Virus record (IMG/VR): IMGVR_UViG_3300049893_003686
From: a virus
Length of the DNA stretch: 64,000 nucleotides
Strand: one strand, 5' to 3'
Part shown: positions 972 to 37,852 of the stretch, one piece after another
How the letters are laid out: the number at the start of each line of letters is the position of its first letter
Numbering within the stretch: the first letter of the stretch is position 1
The notes under the pieces: generated by a model
What the model saw: the letters and a program-made list of their open reading frames with translations, nothing else
The model's database searches: none
What the model was told of the DNA's origin: nothing
Translations under genes and position numbers: made by a program

Positions 972-1602
972 TTTCTTATGCTGTAGTTTATTTTTATGGT
1001 GAGGTTTCTGACGCTAACTCATATAGTAGGATATAAGGATCTATCTTTGACGCAGTAGCATCTACATCGGGATTACATCTTGATATAGCTGTTCGTGAGC
1101 ATAATTTTAATTTTCGCAAAGATCAATAGTTGCTAATAATATAGTTTATGATAAATAGCCTAAGTCTAATCCTTAATGTCTATCTATATAGAGATTTGCA
1201 ACAAACCTTATATCAAGGTCCGCAGTCAGTGGGTTATCGGTGTTTATGATTCTTCCCACTACATCATATAGACCTTATTACCAATATAGCTTAATTTAAA
1301 GCCCCGGATTGTAACTGGGAGATGCGAGCTTATATGCTCGCTATTGGTATTTGTAATTTACATATAATCGTATGCCAGTCGCACATACATCTGCTTATAG
1401 CACTTCGATATAATTATAGTTTATTCTGCTTAGAGGGCCATGTGATTACTTCATCACAGGCAGTCTAAAGCGATTTAAACCTTCTTGAAGAAAGCAATTA
1501 TATACACTAGAAAAATACCTAACCTAGATTAAGGAAGGGTAATTCCGTCAGAGGCAATTTTCTACTGCTATCGTATATGATTTTTATATCTCTACACTAG
1601 AA

Positions 1603-1715
1603 GGTTAATATCTTAGCGTCCAAGATATTAAATACTTTTGCGAAAAAACCGATCTATAAGATCACTGAGATCGCGGGGGAAAATATTCTTAGACAAATGC
1701 ATAGGGCGATCCGAG
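1603..1715. repeat. Direct repeat copy 1 (~113 bp) inside the ORF-free region. It contains the palindrome TTAATATCTT-agcgtcc-AAGATATTAA.
   Basis: Near-identical to 2173-2284. The few mismatches are atcactgag versus ataaccgag and one fewer G in copy 2. Confidence 0.85.
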
Positions 1716-2172
1716 TCTATACTTACTATTATTTCCTCAAGTAAATATATCCTAAGTACCCTATATAATTCTACGAGTTTATTCGACTAATGAGATTCTT
1801 CTTTTCGCGGCCAATAAATGGCACAGCCAGCTACTAGAAGCGCCTCATATTCGGTATAAACGCATTTTATAATAATAATTCTGAGCAACCCGCATAGGCC
1901 ATCTGGGCACCCATTTGGGTCTACTGTAATCATGTATATTTATAAGATTTTATCAAAGCCACTAGTGTGTGAAAAATATATTTGGGTTAATAAATTACTA
2001 ATCTACAATATCCTGCGGCAATTTTATAGTAGGCATCGCAGGTTGCAACATTTTCTATCTTGAAGATGGCGATAAGAATCCATTATATAGCGAGCGTTCT
2101 CACCAAGTGGAAATGTGTCACATCACATTAAGACAATCGTATATAGAGACATCCAGCAATAAATACCGCATA

Positions 2173-2284
2173 GGTTAATATCTTAGCGTCCAAGATATTA
2201 AATACTTTTGCGAAAAAACCGATCTATAAGATAACCGAGATCGCGGGGAAAATATTCTTAGACAAATGCATAGGGCGATCCGAG
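2173..2284. repeat. Direct repeat copy 2 (~112 bp), same element as 1603-1715.
   Basis: Direct sequence identity. Includes the 10-bp-arm palindrome at 2176-2202. Confidence 0.85.
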
Positions 2285-2615
2285 GATTGGATCTAACACT
2301 ACTAGATCTATTCTAATACAATAGATAGTAACTTTAATTCTCTATATGTTAACCATACTCTAAACTTAAGAGTAATTCTAATCTACCAATATCATGCCTT
2401 TGCTATAAGATCTCCGATATCTATCAAAGCTATAAGTGCGTAATAATTTTTATTAGGTTAATACATTATTAACATTAATATAAATAACTGCCTAAATTCT
2501 ACACCCTAAGTCGCATTTCTTCAGATAATTAACTACACATTAACTGTGTGGGCAGCATACAGATGAGTTTGGTAACAGCTAACCCTAAAAACCTATACGA
2601 CATCATAATATAGCT

Positions 2616-2846
2616 ATGGAGAGCGACGAGATGATTTCTTATACGGCAATTTATTGGTATGGTGAAGATTCTAATACTTATGGGGTTTCTAGGGTTTCTG
2701 GGGATTATAGGGCTTCTTGGGCTTCTGGGACTTCTTGGGATTCTGCGGCTTCTAGTGTTTCTAGGGCTTCTAAGGTTTATAGGGCTTCTTGGGTTTCTGG
2801 GGTTTTTTGGGGTTATGTAATCTCCAGAGCAAGGAGTGGTCAATGA
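2616..2846 (+). CDS. Array-B unit ORF (Gly/Ser/Ala/Val-rich low-complexity small protein).
   Basis: Conserved linker ATG (2631, or upstream ATG at 2616). TGA overlaps the next ATG at 2843-2846. Confidence 0.3.
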   Translation: MESDEMISYTAIYWYGEDSNTYGVSRVSGDYRASWASGTSWDSAASSVSRASKVYRASWVSGVFWGYVISRARSGQ

Positions 2847-3031
2847 TCTCTCATGCGACAGTTTATCTTTATGGTGGAGCTTATTGGACTTCTAAGGCTT
2901 CTAAGGCTTCTGGGATTTCTAAGGCCTCTTGGATTTCTAAGGCTTCTGGGGTTTCTAGGGTTTCTATGGCTTCTAGGGCTTCTGGGGGTTATGGGAGCTA
3001 TATAGTCTCCAGAGCAAGAGGTGGTAGATGA
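2843..3031 (+). CDS. Array-B unit ORF ([12 protein letters not shown] + (K/R)AS repeats).
   Basis: ATGA overlaps at both ends. SD-like AAGGAGTGG upstream. Confidence 0.3.
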
Positions 3032-3279
3032 TTTCTCATGTGGGAGTTTATTTTTATTCTGTGGCTTCTTTGGTTTCTGGGGCTTCTTTGGTTTCTAGGG
3101 CCTCTAGGGCTTCTAGGGCTTCTAGGGCTTCTGTGGCTTCTGGGGCTTCTGGGGCTTTTAGGATTTCTGGGGTTTCTGGGGCTTCTTTGGTTTCTATGAC
3201 TTCTGGGGTTTCTGGGGCTTCTGGGGTTTCTGGGGCTTCTGGGGTTTCTGGGGTTTCTGGGGCAAGAGGTGGCAGATGA
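3028..3279 (+). CDS. Array-B unit ORF ([11 protein letters not shown] + GAS/GVS repeats).
   Basis: ATGA overlaps at both ends. Confidence 0.3.
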
Positions 3280-3551
3280 TTTCTCATGTGGGAGTTTATT
3301 TTTATTCTGGGGCTTCTTGGGTTTCTTGGGTTTCTGGGGTTTCTGTGACTTCTTGGGTTTCTAGGGTTTCTGGGGTTTCTGGGGTTTCTGTGACTTCTGG
3401 GGTTTCTGGGGTTTCTGGGGCTTCTGGGGTTTCTAGGGCTTCTAAGGCCTCTATGGTTTCTGGGGCAAGAGGTGGTAGATTATTTCTCATGTGGGAGTTT
3501 ATTGGTACGGCGAGGTTACTGGAGCGGACCTATTCGTATAGGAATAGATAA
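3276..3551 (+). CDS. Array-B terminal unit ORF, which reads out into unique sequence.
   Basis: Begins with an ATGA overlap. The next linker is mutated (ATTA), so the ORF continues into unique sequence. Confidence 0.25.
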
Positions 3552-9417: not shown

Positions 9418-9809
9418 TACCGACTACGCTAAATACTTTAGAACAAGCACTTACAACTGGATTTTGGGAAGACCTTTTAGAGGTTTTACTTAAGCTTAAA
9501 GCTGATAAACAAGAATTGCCTAAGCAATTTAGAGGAGTGAAGAATATATATAAGGCTAAGGACCTCAAAGGGCTCTGTTTTGATCGATTAGGTGATGATC
9601 CAGATTGTGAATGGATTTTAGATGATAGACTATGGGGAGTTTTTCAAAAGCATAAAATTACAGGATACTTCGCCCATCTCGATGATAGCACGACTACATA
9701 TATTGGAACTTACTTCATGGAAGGATATGCATATAAAGCAGATGTGCTTCATAAAATGGATATGAATATTGTAGTGCGAGCGGCAGAGGAATTAAAACCT
9801 AAGGTATAA
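9414..9809 (+). CDS. Hypothetical protein.
   Basis: 131-aa ORF that begins with an ATGA overlap. Confidence 0.5.
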   Translation: MIPTTLNTLEQALTTGFWEDLLEVLLKLKADKQELPKQFRGVKNIYKAKDLKGLCFDRLGDDPDCEWILDDRLWGVFQKHKITGYFAHLDDSTTTYIGTYFMEGYAYKADVLHKMDMNIVVRAAEELKPKV

Positions 9810-9837
9810 TTCATACTTGCGGGAAGCAAAGACACTG

Positions 9838-11039: not shown

Positions 11040-12137
11040 ATGAAGCTACCGACATTATTTTCTCGTACCTCCAGTGGGGCTATCCAAATATGGGAAGTTG
11101 AAGTAATTGATAATAAACATCGCGTAATATCAGGACAGATTGATGGGCAAAAAGTTCAGTCAGAATGGACTGTGTGCGTATCAAAAAATATCGGAAAAAG
11201 CAATGAGACATCTCCAGCTCAGCAGGCCGAACTAGAAGCAGGAGCTAAGTGGAAGAAGAAATTAGAGTCCGGCTATAAGGAGTCTATAGCCGATATAGAT
11301 CAGGTAGGTTTTATTGAGCCAATGCTAGCCAAATCATTTAGTGATTATGAACACGAGATCAAATATCCTGTGTTTAGTCAGCCTAAGTATGACGGGATTA
11401 GGTGTGTAGCTACAAAAAATGGCCTCAGTAGTAGAGGTGGCAAAAGATTCTCTAGCGTACCTCATATAATGGAGGCACTACGACCAATATTTGATAAATT
11501 CCCGCAGCTAGCTTTTGACGGCGAACTATACTGCGATAAATTTGCTAATGATTTTAATCAAATATGCTCTCTCGTAAAGAAGTCAAAGCCATCTACTCAA
11601 GACCTTAAAAATAGTGCTGAAGCAATAGAGTATTGGGTATATGATATTCCCAATGATGAGATGAACATATTTTCAGACCGATATGAGCTACTAGCCACTT
11701 TATTAAAAGATGCGCCAAAGTGCATTAGGATTGTTCCCACACGAATAGTCTATGATAAGTCCCAATTAGATAACGAATATTCTTCATACCTAGAGTTAGG
11801 ATATGAAGGACAGATGGTTCGACTTAATGGCCCTTATGAGAATAAGAGAAGCAAGTTTCTCTTAAAAAGAAAAGAATTTGTTGATAATGAATATCTGATA
11901 GTTGATATAATTGAGGGCGACGGCAACAAGAGTAATATGGCAGCCTCTATGCTATTGCGAGACTCTACTAGTAAAGAATTTAATTCAAATATTAAAGGTA
12001 ATAGACAATATCTACGCAAACTCTTAATAGACAAGAATAACCTTTTAGGCAAACTGGCAACAGTGAAATATTTTAATTTAACGCCTGATGGTATACCTAG
12101 ATTCCCATATGTGATTGCCATAAGAGATTATGAGTAG
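11040..12137 (+). CDS. ATP-dependent DNA ligase (small phage/viral type).
   Basis: Motif I KYDGIRC, motif IV EGQMVR and motif V FLLKRK. 365 aa, typical of minimal viral ligases. Confidence 0.8.
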   Translation: MKLPTLFSRTSSGAIQIWEVEVIDNKHRVISGQIDGQKVQSEWTVCVSKNIGKSNETSPAQQAELEAGAKWKKKLESGYKESIADIDQVGFIEPMLAKSFSDYEHEIKYPVFSQPKYDGIRCVATKNGLSSRGGKRFSSVPHIMEALRPIFDKFPQLAFDGELYCDKFANDFNQICSLVKKSKPSTQDLKNSAEAIEYWVYDIPNDEMNIFSDRYELLATLLKDAPKCIRIVPTRIVYDKSQLDNEYSSYLELGYEGQMVRLNGPYENKRSKFLLKRKEFVDNEYLIVDIIEGDGNKSNMAASMLLRDSTSKEFNSNIKGNRQYLRKLLIDKNNLLGKLATVKYFNLTPDGIPRFPYVIAIRDYE

Positions 12138-12161
12138 AGATATTACAATATAGGAGCGGCA

Positions 12162-13163
12162 GTGACTTTAAATAGTGATTGGCAAATGGCCAAAGTGACA
12201 GACCCTAATATAATAAATTTGGCTGTAGGGGAACCATACTTCCTGCAAAATGCATTGCGACAAAGTAATATTCTAGATAAATGTACTGTACGACTATCTG
12301 GTTTAGAGTACCCACCTTTTGGAGGAGAACCTAAATTAATTGAAGCTATCAAACGGTTGCCTAACTTCGGTGACTATAAGCATGTAGTAATTACTAATGG
12401 GGCAAAGCAGGCCATCTCAGCAGCACTGTATGCTGCAACTGAAGTTAGGCATGCCAAGCGACTCGTACATAGTGCCCCATACTGGCCGTCGTACCCAACT
12501 CTAGCATATCAATGTGGACTTCAGTTCTCTGAAATAGGGAGTGGGTTAGATACGGTAGTTGCCATAACATCGCCAAATAATCCAGATGGAATGCAGGTAT
12601 CGGAACAGAAGTGTTATATTTGGGACGCAGCATATGCGTCTCCTCTATATGGATATAAGGGGGATCATCCGACTGCTGAAGTAGCTATAGTAAGCCTAGC
12701 TAAGTCTTTAGGCATATCAGGGTTACGTATAGGAGCAGCACTTACAAATGATGATGTGCTGGCAAAGTACATGGCATATTTCGTTGAAATATCAACTAGC
12801 GGAGTATCTACAACAGCACAAGAGCAGTGTACAATGCTCATCAAGCATATACTTTCAGATGGAAGTGACGAATTCGCTTCAGTTATTGAGCGCGCTAGAA
12901 GCACACTATCGAACAATCGCAGCTTATTTCGTCAAGTATTATTACCGATTTGTGATGAGGCCAAATTTTCTCACGGTATGTTTGCCTGGTTTAAGCCCAA
13001 TAATAAAGTTGAATTCTCAAATATACTTGAGCATGCAGGAGTTAGGGTAGTAGATGGAGGGGCCTGCGGCGTTCAGGGATGGTTTAGAATGAGTTTAGGA
13101 CTGGATATAAATGCATTTACTGCAGCGATAGAAGCGATATCAACACATATATCAGATCAATAA
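12162..13163 (+). CDS. Class I/II PLP-dependent aminotransferase-like protein.
   Basis: VITNGAKQAISAAL and SLAKSLGISGLRIGAAL resemble the aminotransferase PLP-lysine motif (SxxKxxGxxGxRxG). GTG start. Confidence 0.55.
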   Translation: MTLNSDWQMAKVTDPNIINLAVGEPYFLQNALRQSNILDKCTVRLSGLEYPPFGGEPKLIEAIKRLPNFGDYKHVVITNGAKQAISAALYAATEVRHAKRLVHSAPYWPSYPTLAYQCGLQFSEIGSGLDTVVAITSPNNPDGMQVSEQKCYIWDAAYASPLYGYKGDHPTAEVAIVSLAKSLGISGLRIGAALTNDDVLAKYMAYFVEISTSGVSTTAQEQCTMLIKHILSDGSDEFASVIERARSTLSNNRSLFRQVLLPICDEAKFSHGMFAWFKPNNKVEFSNILEHAGVRVVDGGACGVQGWFRMSLGLDINAFTAAIEAISTHISDQ

Positions 13164-13186
13164 AATTCATAATATTAGGAGATAAT

Positions 13187-13396
13187 ATGCCGTTATTTGA
13201 TTACAAATGTAAGTTATGTAATAGTAAAACAGAGTATCTACTCAAAAATAGCGATGAGATTCCCTATATATGCGAGAATTGTGGGGCAGTATTATCATTA
13301 GTTAAAGAGATATCTAGAAGCACATTTGCATTAAAGGGCTCTGGATGGTATAAGGACCTCTATGGAAATAAATCAGAGACGTCATCAAGTAATTAA
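13187..13396 (+). CDS. FmdB-like zinc-ribbon small protein.
   Basis: CKLCNS...CENCG is a two-CxxC ribbon. RBS AGGAGA upstream. Confidence 0.5.
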   Translation: MPLFDYKCKLCNSKTEYLLKNSDEIPYICENCGAVLSLVKEISRSTFALKGSGWYKDLYGNKSETSSSN

Positions 13397-13557
13397 TTAC
13401 ACCAGTGTAGCTAAGCATACATATTAAGATTGATTACTGCATAAGGAAATATGCAGGCTATGCAATCACAAAAGCTGGTTACCAACGAAGCTTTCAGCTC
13501 ACAATATAATAGATGAGTAAAGTATAAAGATTCACTCTCTTCAAGGAAAGATTACAA

Positions 13558-14136
13558 ATGACTATATGGTTCACCAGCGACCTTCATTTCGGACACGCAA
13601 ATATCATCAAATACTGCAAAAGACCCTATTCTAATGTTGATGATATGAATGAAGCTCTAATAGATAATTGGAATAGCATAGTGCAGAAGGATGATATTGT
13701 ATATGTCCTAGGAGATTTTGCATACGGAAGGCACTTTACACCAGATAAAGCAGCGCGTGTGCTACAGAGATTATCAGGGATTAAAGTTCTAATTGCCGGA
13801 AACCATGATGAAGACAACTTAAGATCTTCACAATTTCGCTCTAAGTTCGAAGAGATACATTCATTATTTGAGCTAAAAATTCCACCAAAGCGTGGTGAAC
13901 GACACGGCACTATGATTGTAATGTGCCATTACCCTATGCGCAAATGGAATCAGTCACATAGAGGATCTATTCATCTGTTCGGACATGAGCATGGGTCTTC
14001 GCCTGAAGATAAGGCATCTCGTAGTATGGATGTTGGAGTAGATTGCCATAATTATTACCCAATTTCTTTTGAAGAAGTTTTGGAAAAAATGGAAACTAAG
14101 ACCTGGAAGCCCAAACGAAATAATAATGAGGAATAG
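13558..14136 (+). CDS. Calcineurin-like metallophosphoesterase.
   Basis: Motifs SDLHFGH, GDFAYG, GNHD and GHEHG. Confidence 0.8.
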   Translation: MTIWFTSDLHFGHANIIKYCKRPYSNVDDMNEALIDNWNSIVQKDDIVYVLGDFAYGRHFTPDKAARVLQRLSGIKVLIAGNHDEDNLRSSQFRSKFEEIHSLFELKIPPKRGERHGTMIVMCHYPMRKWNQSHRGSIHLFGHEHGSSPEDKASRSMDVGVDCHNYYPISFEEVLEKMETKTWKPKRNNNEE

Positions 14137-14139
14137 AAA

Positions 14140-14592
14140 ATGAAGAAGGCATATATCTACGCACCGTTACCACAAGCAGTTCATCATTATTTTCCCAAAG
14201 ATCGAGGAGGAGATGATGACAGCGAACCACACTGTACGATCTTATATGTTGGCGAGATACAAGATTCACTAATACCTAAGTTAAAACAGATTCTTGATGA
14301 AGCTACAAGTGATATGCCACCTATCAAATGTAGTTTTGGACAATTAAAATCATTTCCGGGCGGGGAATACGGAGTGCCGTGGTACGTAGAGATAGATGCG
14401 GATCAAGCACTAGAGCAATTACATAAATCATTATGGAAGAACCTAGAAAACGCAGGTATTGATGTACAGCACAGGTTTAAAAACTATAAGCCACACGCTA
14501 CACTCAAATATCTTCCTGAAGGTAAGAAATATTCCGGAGATATTCCTGTAGGCGACTTCAGTATTTCTGTGGTAGAATTAGATATCCAATAA
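14140..14592 (+). CDS. 2H phosphoesterase (LigT / 2'-5' RNA ligase-like).
   Basis: Two H-x-T-x motifs (HCTILYVG and HATLKYL), typical of the 2H family. Confidence 0.6.
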   Translation: MKKAYIYAPLPQAVHHYFPKDRGGDDDSEPHCTILYVGEIQDSLIPKLKQILDEATSDMPPIKCSFGQLKSFPGGEYGVPWYVEIDADQALEQLHKSLWKNLENAGIDVQHRFKNYKPHATLKYLPEGKKYSGDIPVGDFSISVVELDIQ

Positions 14593-14627
14593 CCATAATT
14601 ATAGTATAATTAGAAGTAATATCAATT

Positions 14628-17222
14628 ATGAATCCAGGCAAATATACACTACAAGCACAGTCTCTATTTATTGACAGCCAGCGAATTGCTAAAGCATATC
14701 AGCACCAGGCAATTGAGCCCGAGCATATGCTGAAGGCACTATTGCAAAATAAGCATGTCTGCAGTGCATTAAGCAAATATACTATCATTAGCGAGCTTGA
14801 GCGTAAAATAGATTTAGAACTACATAAGATACCTCAAGTGCAGGCAGTGAATTATTTGTCACCACGATTTCTTAAAATTGCTTCTGCAGCAGAGGTAATC
14901 GCTACAAAAGCAAACGTTAAGACCGACATAGTGCATTTCTTACTAGCTCTTACCGACGCACGTGTAAATACTTCGATGAGCGGAAGAATATTGCGCGATG
15001 CGGGCTTGACCAGAGAGTATATCGAAGGTGGTATGGCAAGAGCTGGTAAGCCAAAGCAGAAAGCAACAACGGACTCTGCAGTTAGCAAATACGCCATTGA
15101 TCTCACTCAGCGCGCTAGGGACGGGAAAATAGACCCTATAATTGGCAGGGACGAGGAGATACGTAGAATCATTCAGGTTCTCTCCCGACGTTCGAAGAAT
15201 AGTCCAATTCTAATAGGCAAACCAGGTGTAGGGAAAAATACAATTATAAATGGGCTTGCACAGCGAATTGCGGCAGGAGATGTCCCATCCCCACTAATAG
15301 ATTGTAGAATCATGGCGCTAGATATGGGAGCGCTGTTGGCCGGAGCATCATTGCGTGGCCAATTCGAAGAGCGCATGAAGGCAGTAATTGCTGAGGTAAA
15401 TCAAGAAGATGAGAATATCATTTTGTTTATCGATGAAATCCATACATTGGTAGGAGCCGGTGGAGAGGGGGCATCTGATGCTAGTCAGATGCTAAAACCC
15501 CCGCTTGCTCGTGGCGAGATTCAGGTACTTGGAGCTACCACACCAGACGAATATCGCAATTCAATCGAGAAAGATAAGGCTTTGGAGCGTAGATTCCAAC
15601 CCATTCTTGTCGAAGAACCATCATATGATGAGACATTGCGAATTTTACGCGGAATAAAGACCAAATATGAAGTTCATCACGGGGTTCGCATCCAAGATGC
15701 TTCCCTATCTGCTGCCATAAAGTTCTCACAACGGTATATATCTGGACGACATCTACCAGATAAAGCCATTGATTTAATTGATGAGGCAGCCTCTAGGTTG
15801 CGGGTGGCAATAGATTCTGTGCCAGATGAGCTTGATAGTGAAAGTAGAAAGCTAACTCAATTAAAGATGGAATTAGCTGCAATTCATGGTGACTCTGGAC
15901 ACGATACGCACGAGCATAAGAGTAGATTGGAGCATCAAATTTCAGAGGCGGAGAAATCAGTATCAGGATTGAAGTCCAGATGGGAATCCGAGGTTAGCCT
16001 TATACAATCAATTAGGGCTATCAAGGAAGGTATAGAAGAGTCTAGCGCTAAGCTAGAATCCGAAACTAGAAGTGGAAATATAAGCAAGGCCTCAGAATTA
16101 AAGTACGGACAACTACAACGTCTAAAGGCAGATTTAGAAGTAACTACACGCGATTTAAAATCACTACAAAAAGATGCCCCGCTTATCAAAGAAGAGGTAG
16201 ATCCTAGCGATATTGCCGGCGTAGTAGGTGACATTACAGGAATTCCAATTGCATCAATGCTAGAGTCCGAAAAGGAAAAGCTGCGCAACATGGAACAGTA
16301 CTTATCATCACGTGTAATTGGACAAAAGGAGGCATTAAAGGCGATATCTCAAGCCATTCGCCGTAGTCGCTCAGGCCTTAATGATCCAAATCGACCAGTA
16401 GGTAGCTTCTTTTTTCTGGGCCCAACAGGTGTCGGGAAAACTGAGTTAGCTAAAGCGCTTACCCAATTTCTCTTTGATGACGAACGATCTATGATTCGCT
16501 TGGATATGAGTGAATTCCAAGAAAAGCATACTGTAGCGCGACTTATCGGAGCTCCTCCAGGATATAAAGGTGCCGATGATGGAGGGCAATTAACTGAAGC
16601 CGTCAGACTTAAACCATACTCAGTCATCCTATTTGACGAAGTAGAAAAAGCGCACCCTGATATATTCAATATATTATTGCAAGTACTTGATGATGGTCGA
16701 CTAACAGATAGTCAGAGTAGGCTCGTAGATTTCAAGAATACGGTTATTATTATGACATCAAATGTAGGTTCGCAGCATCTACTTACAGCTACAGCCAGTG
16801 ATGGCAGTCTGCCTGATGAGGCAAAAAATGCAGCATTCTCCGATCTACGAAAGTTATTTAGACCAGAATTTCTTGGAAGAATTGATGACGTAATCATGTT
16901 TCACGGTCTCACCAGAAATAATATAGAACATATTGCCAACATTCAACTAAAGAAAGTTTCAGGAATGTTGGCGACACGTAAATTAACGATGAATATATCA
17001 GAAGCAGCACTTAAGGCCATAGTAGATGCTGGGTTTGAGCCACAATTCGGAGCACGACCATTAAGAAGAGCAATCCAGCGTTGGCTGCAAGATCCATTAT
17101 CTTCAGCTATTCTTGAAGGGGGCTACACAGAAGGTGACACCGTATCTGTAGATTTAGCAGAGGATGATGAAAATACAGGCCTTATATTTAGGCGTATAAA
17201 CACTAATGTGAAAAGCAACTAA
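14628..17222 (+). CDS. clpB: ClpB/Hsp104-type AAA+ disaggregase (two AAA modules plus an N-domain).
   Basis: Clp_N repeats (AIEPEHMLKALLQ). Walker A1 GKPGVGKNT. Coiled-coil M-domain. Walker A2 FLGPTGVGKTELAKAL. Sensor PEFLGRID. Confidence 0.9.
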   Translation: MNPGKYTLQAQSLFIDSQRIAKAYQHQAIEPEHMLKALLQNKHVCSALSKYTIISELERKIDLELHKIPQVQAVNYLSPRFLKIASAAEVIATKANVKTDIVHFLLALTDARVNTSMSGRILRDAGLTREYIEGGMARAGKPKQKATTDSAVSKYAIDLTQRARDGKIDPIIGRDEEIRRIIQVLSRRSKNSPILIGKPGVGKNTIINGLAQRIAAGDVPSPLIDCRIMALDMGALLAGASLRGQFEERMKAVIAEVNQEDENIILFIDEIHTLVGAGGEGASDASQMLKPPLARGEIQVLGATTPDEYRNSIEKDKALERRFQPILVEEPSYDETLRILRGIKTKYEVHHGVRIQDASLSAAIKFSQRYISGRHLPDKAIDLIDEAASRLRVAIDSVPDELDSESRKLTQLKMELAAIHGDSGHDTHEHKSRLEHQISEAEKSVSGLKSRWESEVSLIQSIRAIKEGIEESSAKLESETRSGNISKASELKYGQLQRLKADLEVTTRDLKSLQKDAPLIKEEVDPSDIAGVVGDITGIPIASMLESEKEKLRNMEQYLSSRVIGQKEALKAISQAIRRSRSGLNDPNRPVGSFFFLGPTGVGKTELAKALTQFLFDDERSMIRLDMSEFQEKHTVARLIGAPPGYKGADDGGQLTEAVRLKPYSVILFDEVEKAHPDIFNILLQVLDDGRLTDSQSRLVDFKNTVIIMTSNVGSQHLLTATASDGSLPDEAKNAAFSDLRKLFRPEFLGRIDDVIMFHGLTRNNIEHIANIQLKKVSGMLATRKLTMNISEAALKAIVDAGFEPQFGARPLRRAIQRWLQDPLSSAILEGGYTEGDTVSVDLAEDDENTGLIFRRINTNVKSN

Positions 17223-17278
17223 TATAGTCCTGCAGTAACGGAAATCATAATAATGACTACCTCCTATAAAGAGAATAT

Positions 17279-18409
17279 ATGAAATTCCCTATTATCGAGC
17301 ACACAATTTTACTTACAATAGCAGGCTCTAGGAGTTACGGTATGCACAAAAGTGACTCCGATATAGACCTAAAAGGGATAGCCATCCCTCCTATAGATTC
17401 CTATATTGGAGTTTTACCAAATTTCGAACAAGTAGAGTCATCAGAAGCAATGATGGTATATTATCCTCTACTATCGAATGATGAGAAAGATATTTCAGAT
17501 AAATATAAGCTTGAAGGGGTTATATATGATTTGCGTAAATTCATACGACTGGCATCTGGTTCAAATCCCAATATCTTAGATGTATTATTTTGCGATGATG
17601 AGCACGTCAGGTTCTCATCAAAGGCAGGAGATATCATAAGGGCTAGCAGAGATCTATTCATATCTGCACAGGCTAAGCATACATATTCTGGTTATGCAAC
17701 GGCGCAATTTAAGCGCATTAAGACTCATAGGGGATATCTGCTAAATGCTCCAAAGACAGAGCCAGACAGGAGTGAGTTCGGTCTATCAAAGGACCACTGC
17801 ATTCCACGTGCCCAGGTAGAGGCATCTTTATCAGAGATTAATAAGAAACTTGATGAGTGGGAATTAGATCTTAGCTCTATAGATTCTGAGTCTGACAGAA
17901 TGTCGATATTAAATAATATTGCACAAGTACTATCAGAAATAATGTCAACAACTGACTCTAAATGGAAGAGCTCCGCTAGAAACATCGGCTATGGCGATAA
18001 CCTTATTGAAATTCTAGACAAGGAGCGTAGATTTAGACAGGCTAAGAACGAATGGGATAAATATCAATATTGGAAGAAGGGGCGAAACTCAGCACGAGCG
18101 AAACTAGAAGAAAAATACGGGTATGATACCAAGCACGCTTCTCACTTAGTTAGATTAATGAGGATGTGTTATGAGATTTTAGTAGATGGCAAGGTCAATG
18201 TCAATCGCAAGAAAATAGATGCCGATGAATTAGTTGCGATTCGAGATGGCTCATGGAGCTACGATAAGCTAGAGGAATTCTTTATAACGATGGATAATAA
18301 ATGCAGCGAGCTGTATAATAGTAAGTCATATAGCATTCCACATAGGGTAGATATGAGTGCGATAAATGCATTGTGCGTACAACTCATCTCCGATAAGTAC
18401 AAAATGTGA
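17279..18409 (+). CDS. Pol-beta-superfamily nucleotidyltransferase domain protein.
   Basis: GSRSYGMHKSDSDIDLKG matches the GS...D.D minimal nucleotidyltransferase motif. The C-terminal region is unassigned. Confidence 0.5.
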   Translation: MKFPIIEHTILLTIAGSRSYGMHKSDSDIDLKGIAIPPIDSYIGVLPNFEQVESSEAMMVYYPLLSNDEKDISDKYKLEGVIYDLRKFIRLASGSNPNILDVLFCDDEHVRFSSKAGDIIRASRDLFISAQAKHTYSGYATAQFKRIKTHRGYLLNAPKTEPDRSEFGLSKDHCIPRAQVEASLSEINKKLDEWELDLSSIDSESDRMSILNNIAQVLSEIMSTTDSKWKSSARNIGYGDNLIEILDKERRFRQAKNEWDKYQYWKKGRNSARAKLEEKYGYDTKHASHLVRLMRMCYEILVDGKVNVNRKKIDADELVAIRDGSWSYDKLEEFFITMDNKCSELYNSKSYSIPHRVDMSAINALCVQLISDKYKM

Positions 18410-21607: not shown

Positions 21608-21655
21608 GTTATCTATTTAGATTCATGATATGAAAAGTTAGATCAGCTACCAAAT

Positions 21656-21786
21656 AGCGACATGGTGAAGTGGTATCACGTGAGAACAAACATCTCGGTT
21701 CTTTATAACCTTGCCAGATCTATGGCCGAATAAGAATCGTTATCTTAGTCAATCTTAAATCTCCTGTTCGATTCAGGATGTCGCTG
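21656..21786 (+). ncRNA. Candidate tRNA-like structured RNA with a 64-nt insertion.
   Basis: 7-bp acceptor-like pairing AGCGACA/TGTCGCT. D-like stem GTGA/TCAC with loop AGTGGTA. 5-bp stem TGAGA/TCTCG. T-arm TCCTG-TTCGATT-CAGGA. The anticodon loop is non-canonical. Lies in a 200-nt ORF-free gap. Confidence 0.25.
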
Positions 21787-21806
21787 TCTTTTCAGGATTA
21801 GATATA

Positions 21807-25708: not shown

Positions 25709-25792
25709 GGGCCAGTAGACGCGCTCCGCTCATAACGGAGTAAGGGTAATTTGGTTCTGAAAATGTGGGTTCAAGTCCCACCTGGCCCACCA
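25709..25792 (+). tRNA. Aberrant tRNA-like gene, copy 1. It has a CAU anticodon stem-loop, a canonical T-arm and acceptor, and encoded CCA. The D-arm region is only 8 nt and there is a 24-nt extra region.
   Basis: Acceptor GGGCCAG/CTGGCCC followed by A and CCA. T-arm GTGGG-TTCAAGT-CCCAC. Stem CTCCG/CGGAG with loop CTCATAA. A byte-identical copy lies at 42249-42332. Confidence 0.45.
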
Positions 25793-35929: not shown

Positions 35930-36039
35930 AACTAGCAAATAATTTGAAAGAAAAAAGTCACGCAGTACTTTACGTAGGGATGCTACCTGATTATATTACC
36001 AATAATCAGGCGCACATGCGCACCTTACGGAGGTATACT

Positions 36040-36435
36040 ATGCTGTTCAAGTACTTAACTTTGGATCCAATGGATAATTTGCTTGGGTCATTTGGGCGTA
36101 CATATAACTCAACCCACAATAAGCTACCAGCGAATATTTCATCTCAACAAGATAAATACGAAATAAGCATCCTTATTCCAGGATTTACCAAAGACGAGAT
36201 TAAGTTAACTGTAAGTGGTAATACTATGCTAATTTTAGCTGAAAAATCAACCATTTCTGATGTGGAATATTTCCATAAAGAATTTGCAATTGAAACAGTA
36301 GAGCGTAAAATATCATTACCTTCTTCAGTTAAGAAGGATGCCATTTCAGCATCATATAATGAAGGAATTCTGACCATTACACTCCCACACTCTAACTTAA
36401 GAAATGAGTCTTCCATTGAAATTCAAGTTTGCTAA
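36040..36435 (+). CDS. Small heat-shock protein (Hsp20/alpha-crystallin family).
   Basis: Alpha-crystallin domain YEISILIPGFTKDEIKLTVSGNTMLILAEK ... FAIETVERKISLPSSVKKDAISASYNEGILTITLP. RBS GGAGGT lies before ATG 36040. Confidence 0.75.
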   Translation: MLFKYLTLDPMDNLLGSFGRTYNSTHNKLPANISSQQDKYEISILIPGFTKDEIKLTVSGNTMLILAEKSTISDVEYFHKEFAIETVERKISLPSSVKKDAISASYNEGILTITLPHSNLRNESSIEIQVC

Positions 36436-37300
36436 CAATCACCATAATGGTATAGATTACTGTATCATCTATCATGCTAACTGTGCCGACGGCTTTGCGG
36501 CTGCTTGGGCCATATGGAAAGTGCTAGGGGACCAGCTGGCCAGCTATCATCCGGCAGCATACGGCTCAGAGCCACCTGAAGAAATAAAGGATAGGCACGT
36601 AGTTATAGTAGATTTTTCATACTCTCGTAAGGTTCTTGAAGAAATCAAGAGCAAGGCAAAAAGCCTGTTAGTTCTCGATCATCATAAAAGTGCTGAAGAG
36701 AGTTTGCGTGATTTCGAGGGAGCTCATTTTGATATGAATCGCAGCGGGGCCGGTATGGCATGGGATTATTTCCATGAAAAGCCCCGTCCGCCACTCATTA
36801 ATTATGTAGAGGATCGAGACTTATGGAACTGGAAGCTGCCATATGCTAAAGAACTAACCGCTATGTTTGAAATTGATAATCAATCATTTCAAGATCTCTC
36901 TGAATTTAATAGCAAGTTAGAGTCACCTGAAGAATTTCAAGTCTTGGTAACTAAGGGGTCTGCTGTCCTAGAATATAAGAATTCTAGAGTTAAAATGCTG
37001 TCCTCCAAACCTTATATGGTAGACATATCCAGTATATGTATGTTAGATGACCTGACATTGCAGATTCCATGTGTCAATTCTCAACTTTTTCAAAGTGAAA
37101 TTGGTAATGTTTTGGCTCAAAAGCATCCAATGGCAATAGTTTGGTATCGCGCAGAAGACGGATCATATAGACACTCATTGCGTTCGAATGGCAAAATTGA
37201 TTGTAGCAAGATTGCTCAATTTTGGGGAGGCGGGGGTCATGCAAATGCAGCAGGATTTACAACGCAAGAACCCTTAGTTAGAATGGATGATAAAAGCTAA
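36404..37300 (+). CDS. DHH-DHHA1 family phosphoesterase (NrnA/RecJ-like).
   Basis: Motifs ANCADGFAAAWAIW, VVIVDFS and LVLDHHKS (DHH). GGGGHANAAG (DHHA1). Confidence 0.75.
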   Translation: MSLPLKFKFANNHHNGIDYCIIYHANCADGFAAAWAIWKVLGDQLASYHPAAYGSEPPEEIKDRHVVIVDFSYSRKVLEEIKSKAKSLLVLDHHKSAEESLRDFEGAHFDMNRSGAGMAWDYFHEKPRPPLINYVEDRDLWNWKLPYAKELTAMFEIDNQSFQDLSEFNSKLESPEEFQVLVTKGSAVLEYKNSRVKMLSSKPYMVDISSICMLDDLTLQIPCVNSQLFQSEIGNVLAQKHPMAIVWYRAEDGSYRHSLRSNGKIDCSKIAQFWGGGGHANAAGFTTQEPLVRMDDKS

Positions 37301-37412
37301 GCTTGCATATAATTTATGGGTGATGGACCCACAAGCCATCAGTTGGTCGCTAAAAGACTCGGCAAGGGCTGCCGCTATAATAGCCTATATTTATTAGTTT
37401 AATAGCTTATTA

Positions 37413-37484
37413 AACCACCCACAAGCAGATATATACATATGCCTTAATTTTAAGGTAGTATTATGTACTGCTTGTGGGTGGGTT
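37413..37484 (+). other. Long near-perfect inverted repeat (candidate structured RNA or terminator) in the intergenic region upstream of the Ro60 gene.
   Basis: AACCACCCACAAGCAG (37413-37428) pairs with CTGCTTGTGGGTGGGTT (37468-37484), giving 16 bp with one bulge and a 39-nt loop. A related CCCACAAGCC lies at 37326. Confidence 0.4.
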
Positions 37485-37506
37485 ATTAATAACTATATAC
37501 TGATAT

Positions 37507-37782
37507 ATGGCAATTACTCCATTAGAGTTGCAAACTCTTAGTACAGAGCAGATATCGAGCATCTCTCGGGCACGCTCTATAATAGACGCAGAGTTACGAT
37601 TAAAAGTCGACGAAGCATTTCCTATAAAGATTAGGCAGGGTATAATTGACTTTATTTTTAAAGAAAATGCAATGGTGCTCGATGCTCTGATATCAGAGTA
37701 CCGCGCAGCAGGATGGGAAGTGGTTACTTATTTGAGCGACAGTCAAGGTACATGGCTCAGCTTCTATCCTAGTTCTACGTGA
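37507..37782 (+). CDS. Hypothetical protein.
   Basis: 91-aa ORF between the hairpin and the Ro60 gene. Confidence 0.45.
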   Translation: MAITPLELQTLSTEQISSISRARSIIDAELRLKVDEAFPIKIRQGIIDFIFKENAMVLDALISEYRAAGWEVVTYLSDSQGTWLSFYPSST

Positions 37783-37852
37783 GCGGTAGAATTTATAATT
37801 CACATCATATATACTCTATATTTCTACTTGTCAGGCAAGCAGTAGGTGATTT

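Follow-up and report, generated by a model that had tools for sequence, protein, structure and literature searches.

A candidate island of non-coding RNA genes and regulatory DNA in a huge Ro60-encoding phage

What does a phage keep in a stretch of DNA that encodes no protein? The question is raised by an island of about 1.6 kb in the virus record IMGVR_UViG_3300049893_003686 (IMG/VR), of which a 64,000-nucleotide stretch, referred to throughout as the window, was analyzed. A sequence-only reading had described this island as AT-rich and free of open reading frames (ORFs), with two direct repeats of ~112 bp that each contain a palindrome with 10-bp arms, and had suggested a replication origin, a partition site or a small-RNA locus. 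Elsewhere, the window encodes Ro60, a protein whose particles with Y RNAs are found in animals, some bacteria and a few phages. On the evidence assembled here, we judge the chances to be about even that this part of a huge phage with Ro60 serves as an island of non-coding RNA and regulatory sequence, without a demonstrable replication origin.

Positions 1004-2615, no strand assigned: non-coding island, flanked by two arrays of mini-ORFs made of 9-bp repeats.

The island is truly non-coding. No ORF of 60 amino acids or more occurs on either strand between positions 972 and 2528 (1557 nt), the longest such gap in the window, where the second longest measures 407 nt. The absence of ORFs between the arrays had thus been correctly noted; the AT-richness is real but only mild (GC content 0.346, vs. 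0.389 in the rest of the window). The sole ORF at the right end of the island, a minus-strand frame that starts with TTG and overlaps the array (2529..2843), is probably spurious. Reassignment of any single stop codon (TAG, TGA or TAA) leaves stops in all frames of the island and yields no convincing frame, and a tblastn search with 1523 ORF translations from the window and its relatives detected no pseudogene remnants in it, the DNA homology of the direct repeats described below being the sole match. An exact look-up of the island's mini-ORFs found none on record, and no DNA matches in cultured phages were obtained for the island and the adjoining 17 kb.

The two direct repeats, designated R1a and R1b, proved genuine: they span 1602-1715 and 2172-2284 (114 and 113 bp), lie 570 bp apart, and are 97.4% identical over 114 columns, with two substitutions and a 1-bp indel that are all confined to 1663-1676. 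They are the only two long copies, and nhmmer found no further diverged R1 copies in the window. The palindrome, TTAATATCTT-AGCGTCC-AAGATATTAA, is likewise present in both (1605-1631 and 2175-2201), and the window holds no other with up to three mismatches (0.02 expected by chance). A weaker pair of repeats that had escaped the sequence-only reading, R2a and R2b, was found at ~1941-2001 and ~2404-2472 (75% identity). Four copies of the octamer GGTTAATA are present in the window, all of them on the plus strand and inside 1603-2463, and four of the five plus-strand occurrences of TATAAGAT fall within the same interval. The island also contains 12 GATC sites, the highest count of any 1.6-kb bin of the window, an approximately twofold enrichment that is due mainly to the repeats. 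We rejected a miniature inverted-repeat transposable element or other transposon as the source of R1, since its flanks have neither terminal inverted repeats nor target duplications.

Positions 1602-1715, plus strand: repeat R1a, a candidate promoter cassette, with hairpin arms at 1605-1614 and 1622-1631 and a conserved core at ~1618-1694.
Within R1a, plus strand: A-tract at 1643-1648, palindrome GATCTATAAGATC at 1651-1663, -10-like TATAAG at 1655-1660 and G-run at 1675-1679.
Positions 1716-1890, plus strand: spacer downstream of R1a, ~70-77% conserved downstream of the first repeat copy in the related contig L073.
Positions 1941-2001, plus strand: weak repeat R2a, which holds TATAAGAT and GGTTAATA and is probably a decayed cassette fragment.
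Positions 2172-2284, plus strand: repeat R1b, the second candidate cassette, with hairpin arms at 2175-2184 and 2192-2201 and TATAAG at 2225-2230; one arm of its GATC palindrome is mutated (GATCTATAAGATA).
Positions 2404-2472, plus strand: R2b, the second copy of the weak repeat, whose CTATAAGATCTCCGATATC resembles the R1 -10 region with a deletion.

What these repeats are is best seen from their relatives, which were found by blastn and with a profile built from the copies. A core of ~75 nt occurs as a single copy in the hsp20-DHH-Ro60 gene cluster of four related phage lineages, whose Ro60 proteins are 55-64% identical to that of the window. In contigs L051/L072, L052 and L064-66 (nhmmer E-values of 1e-17 to 1e-24), the core is on the coding strand, 100-112 nt before the hsp20 ATG, within a 150-bp gap 5' of hsp20, where it begins immediately behind the stop of the gene before; L070 has a partial copy, also on the coding strand. 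Contigs L053 and L070/71 start inside the element, a break that would be expected if the element were repeated in those genomes. A further IMG/VR contig, L073, carries two core copies 356 nt apart that are 96-99% identical to the window cores, with an adjacent spacer that is only ~70% identical and flanks that cannot be aligned (blastn aligns window positions 1618-1890 with 11567-11859 of the reverse-complemented L073 at 76.8% identity over 293 nt). This difference between core and spacer indicates that the core is under strong constraint, i.e. purifying selection. Core copies are confined to those described here, in the window and in the 21-kb loci of the relatives, and their small number argues against a general promoter.

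The invariant part of the core comprises A/T tracts and CGATCTATAAGAT, a 13-bp palindrome (GATCT-ATA-AGATC) with two GATC sites around the -10-like TATAAG, followed by a G-run; judged by its sequence, CGATCTATAAGAT looks like a -10 element embedded in a GATC palindrome. Consensus RNA folding of seven copies (RNAalifold) gave only -4.9 and -3.3 kcal/mol, and neither strand showed covariation to speak of, which places the constraint on the DNA sequence. The perfect 10-bp arms are specific to the window, as L073 and the copies of the hsp20 type do not preserve the left arm; all that the relatives retain of the dyad is an AT core of 5 bp, with one compensatory AU/UA change across the seven sequences. 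Between the window and L073, the variants CACT and AACC have traded places with respect to their flanking sequences, which suggests conversion or recombination between copies.

Several broader searches yielded candidates that were discarded. A scan of IMG/VR for the palindrome returned three unrelated chance matches, a three-motif pattern in JGI metagenomes returned nine chance matches without blast similarity, and the five matches to the core pattern in GTDB genomes are limited to the 21-nt pattern region and were judged to be chance. A small minus-strand protein apparently conserved with L073 was also rejected: its reading frame is interrupted by a stop in the window copy, and the N-terminal portions show no relationship. 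Adjoining the first cassette copy of L073, at 500-554, 5.5 copies of AGTAATAGGA form a perfect tandem repeat with a 10-bp unit, the window equivalent of which is one diverged copy.

From its sequence and positions, we consider the repeat most likely to be a promoter cassette under regulation, preceded by a weak hairpin. Such a cassette would have three parts: a weak AT-rich hairpin with a short U-run, located in the relatives immediately downstream of the stop of the gene before; an A/T-tract with the invariant CGATCTATAAGAT, in which TATAAG sits within the GATC-flanked 13-bp palindrome, perhaps an operator or a Dam-sensitive site; and the first ~45 nt of the predicted transcript. The hsp20 leaders of the relatives bear on where transcription would start. 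Those of L051 (8058-8175), L052 (8047-8163) and L064 (5320-5427) fold with the GGAGG ribosome-binding site paired, in each case around a small inner GGG/CCC hairpin, the leader sequence used for this differing from phage to phage. In these models, the leader looks like a 5' untranslated region with a thermometer-type hairpin, i.e. a phage RNA thermometer, and if the leaders are 5' untranslated regions, the promoter must lie in the conserved core. A single cassette would drive the hsp20-DHH-Ro60 cluster of the relatives, with a hairpin in a leader of ~100 nt sequestering the ribosome-binding site. In this pairing of the Shine-Dalgarno sequence of hsp20, the relatives resemble leaders of small heat-shock genes with RNA thermometers (ROSE-type); the window cassettes differ in being followed neither by hsp20 nor by any ORF with a hairpin of this kind. 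In the window, both copies are predicted to fire rightward: R1a would produce a non-coding transcript of ~0.5 kb over the partly conserved spacer, ending at the R1b hairpin, and R1b would read into the downstream repeat-array ORFs.

The left part of the island is of a different nature. Two significant matches, both on the plus strand, emerged at 1211-1279 and 1280-1349 when the island was scanned permissively against Rfam. The small-RNA option of the sequence-only reading is therefore borne out for the island, which has Y-like and tRNA-like elements at 1211-1349, and not for the repeats, which behave as a conserved promoter-like DNA element and not as a structured RNA.

Positions 1211-1279, plus strand: Y-RNA-like stem-bulge-stem element (RF01656, 30.7 bits; fold z-score -2.2).
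Positions 1280-1349, plus strand: tRNA-like cloverleaf with anticodon UGU (1310-1312) and no encoded CCA, starting at the base right after the Y-like element.
Positions 37853-39460, plus strand: Ro60/Rsr orthologue (Pfam TROVE 4.3e-39, vWA_Ro60 5e-62; PHROG 850), the presumed protein partner of the Y-like RNA.

The element at 1211-1279 has the architecture of Y RNAs and of stem-bulge RNAs (sbRNAs), as its 5' and 3' ends pair and its lower and upper stems are split by an internal loop. The lower stem consists of 6 bp between AAGGUC (1215-1220) and GACCUU (1271-1276), and GGUCCG is found at 1217-1222. The upper stem has 8 bp and one bulge, GU(C)AGUGGG/CCCACUAC, with a GUG-CAC motif, and is the same in the minimum-energy and centroid folds; here AGUGGGUUAUC (1228-1238) pairs with CCCACU (1255-1260) of CUUCCCACU (1252-1260), giving the A/GUG-CAC/U stem together with UUAUC. 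The best non-tRNA Rfam match in the window (E-value 0.027 over 4227 families in the permissive scan) is to RF01656, the nematode sbRNA family homologous to Y RNA, at 30.7 bits (E-value 1.1e-4 in a 271-nt search), and RF00019 (Y_RNA) scores 17.1 bits. The alignments match the conserved Y/sbRNA blocks, read either as GGUCCG, UGGGUUAUC, CUUCCCA and GACC or as GGUCCG, AGUGGGUUAU(C), CUUCCCACU and GAC(C), and the chance of encountering the latter blocks in this order in 128 kb is <1e-6 by a base-composition estimate.

The element thus resembles animal Y RNAs and nematode sbRNAs (RF00019, RF01656) in having ends that close a stem-loop, GGUCCG in the 5' strand of the lower stem, the upper stem AGUGGG/CCCACU adjoining UUAUC, and a Ro60 gene in the same genome (PMC4726728). 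It differs in being shorter (~65 nt vs. 100 +/- 20 nt) and phage-borne, and in having a tRNA-like element in place of an oligo-U tail. Bacterial and phage Y RNAs are highly divergent from animal ones (PMC4726728), and phage Ro60 proteins with Y-like RNAs have been documented (PMC4201824, PMC12135203). With the YrlA/Yrl class of Y RNAs (PMC4201824), including Yrl1/2 of Thermus phage phiLo (PMC12135203), the locus shares a non-coding RNA of a phage with Ro60 and a tRNA-like module. Processing by RNase P, which cleaves YrlA of M. smegmatis (PMC4201824), is plausible here as well. In contrast to YrlA/Yrl RNAs, the tRNA-like part lies beside the element instead of being nested in it, and lacks conserved T and D loops. 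The YrlA motif GNCGAAN0-1G/CGAA is also absent, the element reading GGUCCGCAG, and a pattern scan of the island found no GNCGAAG. No Rfam family named YrlA appeared even at other phage Ro60 loci, where 124-nt 'tRNA' matches were reported, and its absence here is therefore uninformative. In L055, another IMG/VR phage, two such 124-nt 'tRNA' matches (9474-9597 and 9689-9813) are located on the strand of the Ro60 gene, 200-500 nt upstream of it; these are probably tRNA-mimic Y RNAs of the YrlA type, for which Rfam reports tRNA only.

The neighboring element at 1280-1349 scores 37.4 bits against the Rfam tRNA family (RF00005, gathering threshold 29), and its minimum-energy fold is a perfect cloverleaf (z-score -4.6). 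Its loops are non-canonical, with a T loop that reads UUAUAU and a D loop without GG: neither the G18G19 nor the T54-Psi55-C56 signature was found, and ARAGORN misses the element at default settings, detecting it with -ps80 or -mt. A normal decoding tRNA is unlikely; the cloverleaf is most likely a processing handle or a tRNA mimic. As a handle, it would be recognized by RNase P or RNase Z, and processing at this site would set the 3' end of the Y-like RNA.

Other unusual tRNA-like elements occur in the window. Two identical 84-nt elements (25709-25792 and 42249-42332) have an encoded CCA, a CAU anticodon loop, almost no D arm and a long variable region; they score 42.1 bits against the Rfam tRNA family and are found by ARAGORN only at relaxed settings. 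One of them is on the strand of the Ro60 gene, 2.8 kb downstream of it, and the relatives have 84-90-nt long-arm tRNA or tRNA-like genes just after Ro60. Within a gene-free gap of 199 nt, at 21655-21788, ARAGORN with introns allowed also predicts a tRNA-Asp (GUC) with a 60-nt insertion.

In the model that emerges, 1211-1279 would encode a small Y-RNA-like RNA whose 5' strand carries GGUCCG, the sequence contacted by Ro60 in animal Y RNAs, and whose upper stem and loop would contribute the AGUG-CACU and UUAUC motifs. Judged by these motifs, the putative RNA is likely to be a ligand of the phage Ro60. The fuller proposal is that this is a miniature phage Y RNA with an animal-type signature (GGUCCG, AGUG-CACU, UUAUC), matured by means of the tRNA-like handle, with transcription of the island coupled to the Ro60 stress module through copies of the promoter of the hsp20/Ro60 cluster; we advance it tentatively, as having somewhat less than an even chance of being correct.

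A number of observations weigh against these interpretations. On the RNA side, the element falls below the Rfam gathering scores (30.7 vs. 38 for RF01656, 17.1 vs. 38 for RF00019). The Ro60 site of animal Y RNAs combines a GGUCCGA-type 5' strand with a 7-bp helix, a bulged C and a 3-nt bulge opposite (PMC4726728); in the phage element, GGUCCG is present, but the lower stem is a 6-bp helix that leads into a 4x8 internal loop; it thereby departs from the canonical bulged-C helix and has no discrete bulges. The element is on the same strand as Ro60 but 36.5 kb upstream, whereas bacterial and phage Y RNAs usually lie within 4 kb of Ro60 (PMC4201824). No Y-like counterpart was found in the related phages over 10 kb to either side of Ro60, and Y-like pattern scans of IMG/VR and GTDB genomes returned 0 matches. 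On the promoter side, a sigma-70 -35 box at a distance of 16-18 bp is not recognizable in the cassette by inspection, and a promoter scan found none in R1. Both L073 copies are oriented opposite to the genes on either side, and the second copy contains the stop codon of a convergent gene, an orientation that is odd for a simple gene promoter. Finally, the hsp20 gene of the window itself lacks the CGATCTATAAGAT block.

Positions 35930-36040, plus strand: region upstream of the window's own hsp20, which keeps only the A/T-tract half (AAATAATTTGAAAGAAAAAAG) of an R1-type element.

This last assignment was made by eye against the region upstream of hsp20 in L052, a block that a MAFFT alignment leaves unaligned. 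Other promoter types were compared with the aligned cores by eye, and neither the sigma-54 (GG-N10-GC) and sigma-32 geometries, the misfit of which also counts against the promoter reading, nor the MotA-box geometry of T4 gave a fit.

How well do other explanations account for the repeats? One known parallel, the PeSL cassettes of T4-like phages, are composites of a stem-loop and promoter-like motifs repeated in intergenic DNA (PMC2839356, PMC4122927), with differing contexts in related phages and degraded copies nearby, and they offer a precedent for regarding the cassettes mainly as recombination substrates, exchange between which would move or delete the intervening DNA and leave the island as a by-product. 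The occurrence of the same core in three genomic contexts, the swapped CACT/AACC variants, which suggest conversion, and the nearby decayed R2a and R2b are all consistent with this account. It is, however, compatible with a promoter function rather than opposed to it, and the parallel is incomplete: PeSLs have a near-consensus sigma-70 -35/N17/-10, which the present element lacks, having a stem-loop and TATAAG instead. Its core is longer (~75 nt), with a GATC palindrome over the -10, and it is present in two or three copies rather than dozens (two plus the diverged hsp20 copy in the window, and three contexts in the relatives, as counted in incomplete genomes). We regard a mainly recombinational role as unlikely, and about as unlikely is the proposal that each 113-nt repeat is a small-RNA gene, the two forming paralogous small RNAs with the palindrome as a functional hairpin. 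Sharp boundaries at both ends, a length of ~100 nt with 97% identity within the genome and 96-99% between genomes, the 10-bp hairpin and the compensatory AU/UA change in the dyad core would all suit an RNA gene. Yet the fold z-scores are -0.56 and +0.73 on the plus strand and approximately -1.35 on the minus strand, consensus folds are weak and without real covariation, the left hairpin arm is unconserved in L073 and in the hsp20-type copies, and the element of the relatives ends in the hsp20 leader and not at a terminator. That the whole island is decaying junk, i.e. duplicated intergenic remnants and a dead tRNA without current function, seems to us the most improbable explanation of all. 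It could draw on the non-canonical loops of the tRNA-like gene, the degraded appearance of the R2 fragments and the stop codon that interrupts the minus-strand frame conserved with L073; it is countered by the near-identity of the core in two phage contigs whose spacers are ~70% identical and whose flanks are unalignable, by the retention of the core upstream of hsp20 across phages with Ro60 proteins as divergent as noted above, and by a Y-like motif match far beyond chance.

The two remaining possibilities were raised in part by the sequence-only reading, and neither a replication origin built on iterons nor a partition site was borne out. An origin could take the form of protein-binding repeats or of an R-loop formed by a promoter transcript over an AT-rich unwinding region, as in T4; origins of the T4 ori(uvsY) style are of the promoter type, and a promoter-like core would be compatible with one. 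Like iteron and T4 promoter-type origins, the island is non-coding, with A/T tracts and direct repeats with dyads, and its mild AT-richness and the clustered GATC sites in the core would also suit an origin. Other features speak against one: an iteron origin would present at least three close direct repeats of 17-22 bp and/or DnaA boxes next to an initiator gene, whereas the island has two copies 570 bp apart, no tandem iterons and no DnaA-box match within one mismatch in 1004-2615; the genes annotated beside it encode a glycosylase and NAD-salvage functions, with no initiator among them; and cumulative GC skew rises monotonically across the 64-kb window, without a turning point. In four relatives, moreover, the element is single-copy and confined to the gap upstream of hsp20. 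We therefore rate an origin as no likelier than a pair of small-RNA genes. Still less likely, to the point of being doubtful in the extreme, is a role of the palindromes in binding a protein for partition, packaging (pac) or repression that has nothing to do with transcription initiation. Each copy does offer a perfect 27-bp dyad and a 13-bp GATC palindrome, and the pac site of P1 is marked by clustered GATC sites, which those of the island recall. However, nothing specific supports such a site: the 10-bp arms are unconserved in the relatives, no par or terminase genes are among the annotated adjacent genes, and a single copy directly upstream of hsp20, as in the relatives, would be unexpected for pac or parS. 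A regulated promoter cassette thus remains the reading of the repeats that we prefer.

The genomic setting is consistent with a Ro60-carrying phage of large size. The window derives from a JGI metagenome contig of 65 kb. The closest homologues of the window's Ro60 (55-64% identity) are on large uncultured contigs of up to 368 kb, with which the window shares the order hsp20-DHH-89aa-Ro60...VanY-IF3-SspB...FtsK; this shared order places the genome in a huge-phage lineage with a Ro60 module. Nearly all genes of the window are on the plus strand, including those for NAD salvage, ClpB, DNA ligase, LigT, RlaP, IF3, SspB, an FtsK-like ATPase and a helicase, and searches with neighboring genes in IMG/VR found no syntenic relatives. 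The regions 11040-18409 and 36404-42201 contain a set of RNA-repair and translation genes that is unusually rich for a phage (ATP-dependent ligase, Metallophos, LigT 2',5'-ligase/phosphoesterase, RlaP nucleotidyltransferase, DHH phosphoesterase, Ro60, IF3 and SspB-like), along with the chaperones ClpB and Hsp20. Between the DHH gene and the small ORF upstream of Ro60, a long near-perfect hairpin at 37414-37484 (AAACCACCCACAAGCAG...CTGCTTGTGGGTGGGTT) is probably a strong terminator, and the Rfam microRNA matches at this site are spurious.

The arrays that flank the island, at 1-1000 and 2616-3551, are composed of a 9-bp repeat (GGGCTTCTN) and form four tandem units of 250-290 bp on each side. 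Each unit has a conserved header of ~60 bp, a Shine-Dalgarno-like AAGAGG, an ATG and an ATGA stop/start overlap, and the units encode proteins of 76-98 amino acids (83-98 in the four units of the left array) that end in (G/R/W-A/V-S)n, with a second open frame, (G-L-L)n. A GGG every 9 nt on the plus strand confers G-quadruplex potential. No homologues of the array ORFs were found among 5.8 billion proteins, and a scan with the array header gave one match, within a tape-measure gene, that was dismissed as chance. Short-read assemblies break in the arrays, as does the Logan assembly of the same phage.

Several implications follow for the biology of these phages and of Ro60. Repeats and dyads in non-coding DNA do not in themselves make an origin, and such loci in phage genomes call for caution. 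For the hsp20-Ro60 module of this lineage of uncultured huge phages, the repeat supplies a concrete cis-element that is conserved and can be examined as a promoter or operator. Should the Y-like element be what it appears to be, Y RNAs may lie tens of kilobases from Ro60, where searches 'within 4 kb' would miss them, and a locus remote from the gene for Ro60 could program phage Ro60 ribonucleoproteins. The 'animal' Y-RNA architecture would then not be confined to metazoa, and would be either ancient or imposed by Ro60 itself; animal-type motifs in a phage RNA make it testable whether they are dictated by Ro60, through convergence, or inherited.

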